From Gammaproteobacteria bacterium (lineage in GTDB: Bacteria; Pseudomonadota; Gammaproteobacteria; JAADGQ01): a DNA stretch of 64,000 nt. The DNA lies in NCBI GenBank assembly GCA_021648145.1, contig JAKITI010000002.1:135888-199887 (forward strand), given 5' to 3'. The notes under the pieces were generated by a model. That model searched no databases and had not been told where the DNA came from. It was given only the letters and a program-made list of their open reading frames with translations. Of the stretch, positions 56,840 to 58,206 are shown piece after piece (position 1 is the stretch's first letter; each line of letters opens with the position of its first letter). The translations under genes and the position numbers were made by a program.

Positions 56840-56846
56840 CTTTTGG

Positions 56847-57815
56847 TTAACCTTTAAGTCTAGAACTCAATCTATTTAGTTGCTCATCTCCTTGCTCTTT
56901 TCCATTCAAAAAACTCTCAGCAATACCTTGAAGTGCATTTAGGTTTGTGGCATCTGCGTTATCGAGATCATCATATGCTTTATCTAAGATGACTTGAAAT
57001 CGAAAATAATTTCCGTCAGCTAAAAACTGATTGTTTATATAGTCAACAATTTCGACTGACGCATCAAAAAGAACGTCGATAATAGGTATTGCCCACTCTA
57101 AAGCTCCCCATTCTTCTGCTTCATCACGTGAAATCTTTCTTGTAGAGCGCCCAGTCCCGAATGAAGCAAGCAAAATATTATCTAGAGCGTTACCCAATTT
57201 TTTTGCCTCTGCAACCGCACAAGCTGAAGGATTATTAGCGACTACGCCTCCATCAATCAAAGGTGATATTGAACGACCAAGTTTCATTTCATGAGCAGGG
57301 AAATATGTAGGAGCAGAGCATGATGCTTTACAAATTTGCCATACCTCATAATTTTCATGCTCTTTTTTTGTTGATTTAAAAACAATAGGCCTTCTATTAA
57401 GTACATCATATGAAACGACCATTACAGGGATCTTTAAATCTTTCAGTTTTAGTGCTCTCCCAGACTTTGTGAAAATTTTTTTGATCTCTTTTTCCAATCC
57501 ATTAGCGTCATACTTTGGGGCACTGAAACCTTGGGAAAATGTTCTTGTAAACCTCCCCCATAAGCGTTTTGTTTTACTTGGGAATATCAAAGGTCCACTA
57601 TCAATAAATAGGGAATTTATACGTTCAGCTTCAATCCCAGCTGCAACACCACAAGCTATCAAGCTACCTGTGGATGTGCCAGCAACCATATCAACATAAT
57701 TATGTAATAGTTTTCCTTCTAAACATTTATTTTCCATATAGCTTAGCCATATAGAAGGGATGACTCCTCTAATGCCGCCACCATCAAATGATAATATTTT
57801 ATATACATCGGTCAT
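56847..57815 (-). CDS. patatin-like phospholipase (PNPLA)
   Basis: FDGGGIRGV oxyanion hole, AGTSTGS GxSxG serine nucleophile, IDGGVVANNP catalytic Asp motif. AT-rich relative to neighbours. Confidence 0.85.
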   Translation of the reverse strand: MTDVYKILSFDGGGIRGVIPSIWLSYMENKCLEGKLLHNYVDMVAGTSTGSLIACGVAAGIEAERINSLFIDSGPLIFPSKTKRLWGRFTRTFSQGFSAPKYDANGLEKEIKKIFTKSGRALKLKDLKIPVMVVSYDVLNRRPIVFKSTKKEHENYEVWQICKASCSAPTYFPAHEMKLGRSISPLIDGGVVANNPSACAVAEAKKLGNALDNILLASFGTGRSTRKISRDEAEEWGALEWAIPIIDVLFDASVEIVDYINNQFLADGNYFRFQVILDKAYDDLDNADATNLNALQGIAESFLNGKEQGDEQLNRLSSRLKG

Positions 57816-58206
57816 GTTTTTTCCTTTGTAAATTTAGCAACTGGTTTTTAATCTTTGCGGGCTTATTTGCCTCCGTTTGCGGTACCATGAAATTGAAGAT
57901 TCAAAATTAATACAGCATAAGAAATACTACTGTAAGAACATGATGATACCTTATAATAAACTAAAATCACTGCCTGAAAGTGAGAAATATTTGAAGCCGG
58001 GGGGCGGCATTTGTAATGTTTGATCAAGTGGTCATGAAAATGGGTGGTAATCAGGATGCCAAAACTCTCTATGAAGTTTTTGAAGAGATCACGGGAATCA
58101 GCAAAAATGATTTAATAAGTTATGCTCTTATGACCTGAACTCAAAGCGCGAGCTTCTTATTTTTTAAATTTGTGAGGTTTTGGCATTCTTATTTTCAGGG
58201 TTTAGG

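Follow-up and report, generated by a model that had tools for sequence, protein, structure and literature searches.

The convergent plsC-metF junction in the 64-kb stretch of DNA analysed here (the window, to whose positions all coordinates refer) carries an intact patatin-like phospholipase gene that was inserted horizontally, evolves under purifying selection and has no CBASS partner genes in the window; its product is probably an accessory cytoplasmic lipid acyl hydrolase that belongs to a clade of stand-alone patatins and not to CBASS (Table 1). The surrounding DNA has a housekeeping character, with the genes alaS, recA, purA, glnA, pyrG, hisS, glyQS, gmhB, plsC, metF, ahcY and metK. The Pfam Patatin domain (PF01734) matches residues 8-196 of the protein at 90.7 bits (cut-off 27.7), and the three catalytic signatures that the first-pass annotation had read as intact were confirmed: the oxyanion motif GGGIRG at residues 12-17 (G12, R16, G17), the nucleophile elbow GTSTG at residues 46-50 with the nucleophile Ser48, and DGGVVANNP at residues 188-196 with the catalytic Asp188, which together define a predicted Ser48/Asp188 dyad; across 66 aligned homologues, all three motifs vary little or not at all. 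The architecture is that of a single domain without a delivery or localisation domain, and since inspection revealed no signal peptide, the protein is presumably cytoplasmic. The AF2 model is of high confidence (pLDDT 92.6, pTM 0.92). An exact-sequence lookup of the protein found no record; its lipid acyl hydrolase activity is predicted from the catalytic chemistry of the family.

Table 1. Features of the plsC-metF junction and its surroundings, in window positions.
Feature	Position	Strand	Evidence and remarks
plsC-like acyltransferase, left flank	56120..56839	+	PF01553, 79.2 bits; convergent with the patatin gene
Inferred inserted segment	56822..58213		About 1.39 kb, GC 0.369; blastn blocks, junction alignments, composition
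Patatin-like phospholipase gene	56847..57815	-	Intact ORF, 322 aa
Small spacer ORF	57788-57910	+	ORF list
AT-rich spacer, part of the inserted segment	57816..58206		391 bp, GC 0.353
Shine-Dalgarno-like AAGGA	57822..57826	-	Sequence read directly; GG 7 nt 5' of the patatin ATG
Small spacer ORF	57863-58027	-	ORF list
Small spacer ORF	57877-58023	+	ORF list
40-codon ORF of the first-pass annotation	58016..58138	+	Unsupported as a gene; one of four small spacer ORFs
metF (methylenetetrahydrofolate reductase), right flank	58207..59067	-	PF02219, 307.9 bits
SAH riboswitch heading the ahcY-metF operon	60556..60629	-	Rfam RF01057, 62.3 bits (gathering score 37)

The patatin gene stands apart from its neighbours in composition. 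With a GC content of 0.372 and a GC3 of 0.248 it ranks lowest among 43 window ORFs on both measures (z = -3.05 for GC and -3.25 for GC3 against the other 42), compared with 0.468 and 0.442 in plsC and 0.446 and 0.418 in metF; the greater AT-richness relative to both flanking genes that had been noticed at first reading was confirmed. The convergent arrangement with plsC was likewise borne out by the coordinates, the end of plsC (56839) and the end of the patatin stop codon (56847) leaving a gap of 7 bp; the first-pass annotation had not recorded that the patatin gene lies on the same strand as metF and 391 bp downstream of it.

A scan of the genome collection with PlsC led to two uncultured gammaproteobacterial MAGs (L001 and L002), each with a PlsC 91% identical to that of the window. 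L001 has the gene order glyQ-glyS-gmhB-plsC followed convergently by metF-ahcY-metK, and its junction is the patatin-free one that the first-pass annotation had suggested looking for in relatives; about 57 bp separate the stop codons of plsC and metF and include a 16-bp hairpin (-19.3 kcal/mol, z -6.4). The same junction in L002 is occupied by a 5.3-kb cargo that comprises a cobalamin riboswitch (101.8 bits) and genes for a TonB-dependent receptor, a periplasmic binding protein, a FecCD permease and an ABC ATPase. By blastn, the homology of the window with both genomes ends at position 56821 and restarts at 58214. The final five or so codons of plsC differ among all three genomes; the 3' end of metF is common to L001 and L002 and different in the window, so that the terminal codons of metF in the window, stop included, come from the insert. 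These differences at the ends of plsC and metF, together with the homology breakpoints, place the inserted segment at approximately 56822-58213. A search for direct or inverted repeats as signatures of transposition around the insert yielded short, chance-level matches only, and neither an integrase nor a tRNA is associated with the segment.

The junction states and the outlying composition favour a gain in the window lineage as the better reading, a direction that is based on two relatives plus composition. Horizontal insertion of the patatin gene between plsC and metF, as proposed from the sequence at the outset, is therefore supported by a compositional outlier, an empty junction in one close relative and a different cargo in the other; a gene conserved at this junction and using the codons of its host, which would have pointed to a core gene, was looked for and not found. 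The opposite history, in which the common ancestor already carried the patatin gene between plsC and metF, L001 deleted it and L002 replaced it, is very unlikely. It could draw on the small number of relatives and on the divergence of the plsC 3' end in all three genomes, but it would have to accommodate a gene whose GC3 lies 3.3 standard deviations below the other window genes, a metF 3' end of identical type in L001 and L002 that is missing from the window, a clean terminator hairpin kept in L001, a sole close homologue with a different flank, and next homologues from unrelated phyla with no more than 56% identity.

This sole close homologue (P0001, on locus L009) was the only one found among 5.8 billion clustered proteins. 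It lies on a 1.1-kb metagenome contig, is 91% identical to the window patatin at the amino acid and 86% at the nucleotide level, has a similarly low GC3 (0.244), and is followed downstream by sequence unrelated to plsC. The comparison of the two genes over 316 codons gives a dN/dS of 0.053 at a dS of 0.81, which indicates that the patatin gene is functional and evolving under constraint; strong purifying selection acts on it.

The spacer between the patatin gene and metF had initially been described as holding only a 40-codon ORF and neither a cyclase nor an immunity gene. The absence of the latter genes was upheld; the count of ORFs was not, as four ORFs of 40-54 codons, distributed over both strands, lie within the spacer or extend into it (Table 1). 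Neither Pfam nor PHROG gave a match for any of them, and for the one originally singled out tblastx found nothing in the vicinity of patatin relatives. No recognisable gene, repeat or sigma-70 promoter was found in the spacer, a comparison with Rfam returned nothing at E<=1, the RNA fold is unremarkable (z = -0.68), and blastn against plasmids detected no similarity. A degraded cyclase or another conserved element was sought in the spacer by tblastx and blastn against 127 loci, a real CBASS operon among them, and was not found.

Transcription of the patatin gene may originate upstream of metF. A scan of positions 56600-58400, spacer included, detected no terminator-like site, and the 70 nt on the 3' side of metF are unstructured, without a hairpin (-3.5 kcal/mol, z 0.04). 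Read-through from metF is plausible in view of this unstructured 3' side, the lack of a terminator, the co-orientation of the two genes and the patatin gene's own Shine-Dalgarno sequence; the ahcY-metF operon with its SAH riboswitch may thus supply read-through transcription into the patatin gene.

Beyond the close homologue, all remaining relatives are at most 56% identical to the window patatin. Members of a stand-alone clade, for example those of Gimesia panareensis, Bremerella, Leptolyngbyaceae and Oculatella, show 46-56% full-length identity, have the same length and architecture, share about 40 invariant positions with the window protein, and like it are encoded by single genes without a conserved partner. 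Homologues named in NCBI come from Planctomycetota, Cyanobacteria and one Pseudomonadota MAG, and each is labelled generically as "patatin-like phospholipase family protein". With a GC of 37%, the window patatin and its close homologue stand on a low-GC branch of their own; the other members' loci, mostly GC-rich, have 45-76%, and the donor of the window gene is not among the sampled lineages. We know of no characterised member of the stand-alone clade; a literature search found none either, and returned nothing relevant on orphan or stand-alone CapV-like effectors.

Recurrent neighbours of patatin relatives are confined to one subclade. A gene for OMPLA (PF02253, about 350 bits) adjoins the patatin gene in nine GC-rich loci, and one for class I fumarase in six; all of these loci carry patatins of this subclade, 72-79% identical to the homologue P0118. 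A functional OMPLA-patatin module was considered and rejected, given that all nine cases come from this GC-rich subclade and are explained by lineage synteny; in the OMPLA-patatin-fumarase lineage, the patatin behaves as a core gene.

Comparison of the AF2 model with known structures by Foldseek gave the plant patatin Pat17 as the best match (TM 0.84-0.85, rmsd 2.9-3.0, E 4e-23), followed by CapV (TM 0.78-0.80), CapE (0.72-0.76), PlpD (0.57-0.59) and VipD and ExoU (0.32-0.49); among the families that had been suggested for a homology check, the likeness to CapV therefore holds at the level of the fold, whereas ExoU and VipD are distant. The predicted fold is slightly nearer to plant patatin than to CapV. 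By sequence, Pat17 (PDB 1OXW/4PK9) aligns with the window patatin end to end (residues 4-305), whereas the CapV structures align over residues 4-259 or 5-203 only; Pat17 and the window patatin have in common the Ser-Asp dyad, the GGGxRG motif, the single-domain architecture and a C-terminal YxRxQ...DDxxxAxxN region (motif YFRFQ...DDxDxA..N). The two proteins differ in that their identity is only 24% and that Pat17, a eukaryotic vacuolar storage protein, lacks equivalents of Lys147 and Glu203. CapV (AbCapV 8ZR9; 9KH6/9KH7) and CapE (9IOM) are also single-domain patatin folds; unlike CBASS CapV, the window patatin and its examined relatives have no adjacent cyclase.

The matches of the window patatin to CBASS profiles were evaluated against controls. 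Two PADLOC models for CBASS phospholipase effectors match at 233 and 216 bits, and the NCBIfam model CBASS_lipase (NF041079) at 182.3 bits, under its equivalog cut-off of 200 bits. On the latter model, seven members of the stand-alone clade reach 183-206 bits and the patatin of Wolbachia phage WO scores 183 bits, compared with 253 bits for a true CapV from a Shewanella ANA-3 plasmid, where capV overlaps a nucleotidyltransferase (cyclase) gene; one of the stand-alone proteins (the cyanobacterial P0067) passes the cut-off and has no cyclase nearby. Since non-CBASS patatins score alike, the similarity of the window patatin to CBASS models is real but of a generic level. Annotated CapVs of plasmid-borne CBASS are 26-39% identical to the window patatin and thereby no closer to it than non-CBASS patatins of Nostoc, Chryseobacterium and phage WO. 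A further model, "DS2_1_antiphage" (NF053870), represents the lipase of the CBASS-DAC system (PMC13069673); the window patatin reaches 81 bits against its cut-off of 400 bits, and this identity was rejected.

Gene neighborhoods agree with the profile controls. Among the 36 ORFs in the window with 150 aa or more, no CD-NTase, Cap model or other cyclase was detected, and no convincing anti-phage model match occurs in the window besides the patatin itself. Five homologues on long contigs, evaluated by precomputed Pfam annotation and by PADLOC on unannotated neighbors, have no cyclase nearby (0/5). In a metagenome scan of 80 loci with patatins 28-55% identical to the query, the 104 neighbor ORFs (200-650 aa, within 1.3 kb) included no CD-NTase, Cap2, Cap3 or HORMA gene by PADLOC and top Pfam families. 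A cyclase or other CBASS gene was thus found in none of approximately 65 informative relative contexts.

The residues that contact cGAMP in AbCapV, among them F147, K149, D159, E207 and R279 (PMC12480259), offer a separate comparison. They were mapped by a MAFFT alignment that covers AbCapV residues 10-233, so that R279 and the C-terminal ligand and filament contacts fall outside it. K149 and E207 correspond to K147 and E203 in the window patatin and are conserved in the clade; the K149 equivalent is also kept in the non-CBASS patatin of phage WO. F147 is replaced by V145, at a position that is variable among CapVs as well. D159, which is essential in AbCapV and is an Asp in three of three CBASS CapVs, corresponds to H153 in the window patatin and to His or Tyr in the clade; the window protein lacks the "PHNP" loop on which this Asp lies in CapV. 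The two PADLOC scores, and the presence of K149 and E207 equivalents in the clade and not in plant patatin, were counted against the reading as an accessory hydrolase outside CBASS; the two conserved residues would be compatible with nucleotide gating.

The same observations are those on which an orphan CBASS-type effector could be built, a CapV-like protein that would be activated by a cyclic di- or oligonucleotide from an unlinked cyclase or from a co-resident element and would destroy the membrane in abortive infection; the NF041079 score just short of the cut-off, the TM of 0.72-0.80 to CapV and CapE, and the AT-rich, horizontally acquired nature of the gene would fit as well. Such a role is nevertheless unlikely for a gene with no cyclase in 64 kb and no CBASS gene in its relatives' contexts, with scores on the CBASS model that the WO patatin and other non-CBASS patatins equal, with Asp159 changed to His or Tyr and its loop missing, and with a lysine that is not specific to CBASS proteins. 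The metabolic cargo of the L002 junction further argues that the plsC-metF junction is not a defence island. The CapV-like defence function that the first-pass annotation had entertained is accordingly not sustained, in view of the generic CBASS scores, the cyclase-free contexts and the missing ligand loop.

The resemblance to the patatin of Wolbachia phage WO raises an alternative that does without a nucleotide signal: a single-gene anti-phage or mobile-element lytic lipase that would sense infection or membrane stress by itself, or a lysis accessory derived from a phage. The WO protein is 35% identical over 85% of the protein and is likewise encoded by a stand-alone gene, on a mobile element; it differs in being phage-borne, in the region next to the tail genes, and in lacking a Glu203 equivalent, and it is not a close relative of the window patatin. 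The latter also has a 172-bit match to PHROG 25573, a group of unknown function, relatives with 26-39% identity occur on 29 viral contigs, the gene is mobile between contexts, and a holin-family gene (PF04020) lies 4 bp upstream of one homologue (P0002). Against this, identity to viral and plasmid proteins never exceeds 39%, phage, integrase and defence genes are absent nearby, the patatin is syntenic with housekeeping genes in one lineage, and the holin-family neighbor occurs in that one context only; an autonomous lytic role has little probability on balance.

Patatin effectors of the ExoU, VipD and Tle kind exist, and a horizontally acquired patatin gene could in principle encode such a secreted antibacterial or anti-eukaryotic phospholipase toxin. 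Toxins of the ExoU/VipD type would be expected to exceed 500 aa, to combine several domains, one of them for localisation or cofactor binding, and to have a secretion system or chaperone nearby; PlpD-type (type Vd) proteins combine the patatin with a signal peptide, POTRA and beta-barrel. The 322-aa, single-domain window protein lacks a signal peptide, POTRA and barrel domains and any domain for delivery or localisation, and its structural similarity to these proteins is low, as given above. No immunity gene, chaperone, VgrG/PAAR or secretion gene was found beside the patatin or its relatives, nor were secretion genes found elsewhere in the window. The toxin function that had been considered at first reading is thus highly improbable.

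A broader proposal would take the cyclase-less clade as immune effectors of a new class, which would destroy membranes either autonomously or after activation in trans. In that case the clade would have kept Lys147 and Glu203 and replaced the Asp159 loop of CapV by a loop of its own, the nucleotide signal would come from unlinked or housekeeping cyclases or infection would be sensed directly, and the mobility of defence genes would account for their spread, one gene at a time, into variable junctions like that of plsC and metF. This is distinctly doubtful; if true, CapV-like effectors that work independently of a cyclase would make up a sizeable family so far unrecognised.

The preferred reading of an accessory lipid acyl hydrolase can be outlined as follows. 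An AT-rich segment of about 1.4 kb recently brought the patatin gene into this gammaproteobacterial lineage and replaced a short, hairpin-bearing intergenic region between plsC and metF, leaving the gene downstream of the ahcY-metF operon, in the same orientation and with a ribosome-binding site of its own. The protein would use the Ser48-Asp188 dyad and the GGGxRG oxyanion hole, and represents a clade that is widespread in Planctomycetota, Cyanobacteria and some Pseudomonadota and is related to plant patatin and to the CBASS proteins CapV and CapE, yet stands outside CBASS. It may hydrolyse acyl esters of membrane phospholipids or lysophospholipids, as an accessory activity in lipid turnover or remodelling. 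Cytoplasmic phospholipases normally need tight control, and the activity would presumably be held in check by some means; no regulator of the patatin was found, which was counted against this explanation.

As a caution for the annotation of similar genes, strong matches to CBASS "phospholipase effector" models are a general property of single-domain patatins of the plant type and do not by themselves indicate a defence system. The window patatin is an additional member of an already known group of stand-alone patatins; its locus provides a clean, datable case in which a single accessory gene replaces a terminator-bearing intergenic region between two convergent core genes, at a junction that carries different cargo in sister genomes.

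The plsC-metF junction is a general hotspot for accessory cargo, since in the sister MAG L002 the same junction is occupied by an accessory cassette; its cobalamin riboswitch is followed by genes for a TonB-dependent receptor, a periplasmic binding protein, a FecCD permease and an ABC ATPase. The patatin gene inserted at this junction in the window has only one close homolog (91% amino acid identity), on the short metagenome contig L009; there the downstream flank is unlike plsC, and the patatin gene has therefore shifted between genomic contexts. Elsewhere in the window, a giant ORF of 2840 aa (8-8530, plus strand) has the window's maximal GC content (0.50 vs. 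0.445 overall), and both tRNA-Ser genes are distant from the patatin insert.

Coordinates of features in the window and in the loci compared with it
Feature	Location	Strand	Details
SAH riboswitch	window 60556-60629	-	RF01057, 62.3 bits; upstream of ahcY-metF
tRNA-Ser (anticodon TGA)	window 15498-15587	+
tRNA-Ser (anticodon GCT)	window 30397-30489	+
Accessory cassette at plsC-metF junction	L002 6702-12046		Sister MAG
Cobalamin riboswitch	L002 6799-7011		101.8 bits
Flank 3' of patatin, with convergent ORF	L009 977-1108		Flank GC 32%; ORF unrelated to plsC
PF04020 (Phage_holin_4_2) family gene	L010 7653-7997		P0002 context, Pseudomonadota MAG
P0067, cyanobacterial stand-alone patatin	L017 6001-7008		NF041079, 205.9 bits
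Outer-membrane phospholipase A1 gene (example)	L039 3735-4907		PF02253

Among the patatin homologs, nine in GC-rich metagenome loci (L027, L028, L029, L030, L032, L036, L039, L040 and L055) adjoin an outer-membrane phospholipase A1 gene (PF02253, ~350 bits), whose product carries an N-terminal extension of 125-200 aa; a class I fumarase gene often follows downstream. This adjacency could possibly represent a two-lipase pairing; yet all nine loci fall within one subclade, and the adjacency is therefore probably lineage synteny. A holin-lipase pairing is possible for P0002, a patatin homolog of 56% identity that is preceded by a PF04020 gene ending 4 bp ahead of it, in a single genomic context, since the contigs L010 and L011 that carry it differ very little. 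The cyanobacterial P0067 is flanked on one side by an M50 peptidase gene, with groES-groEL ~1.3 kb downstream; it exceeds the 200-bit equivalog cut-off of NF041079, and its automatic name would be "CBASS cGAMP-activated phospholipase." Its 13-kb locus contains no annotated cyclase, and this name carries a risk of over-annotation.

The inserted patatin gene lies downstream of the ahcY-metF operon in the same orientation, and the terminator hairpin of the empty plsC-metF junction in the related MAG L001 is missing from the window; read-through from this SAH-riboswitch operon may therefore partly drive patatin transcription.
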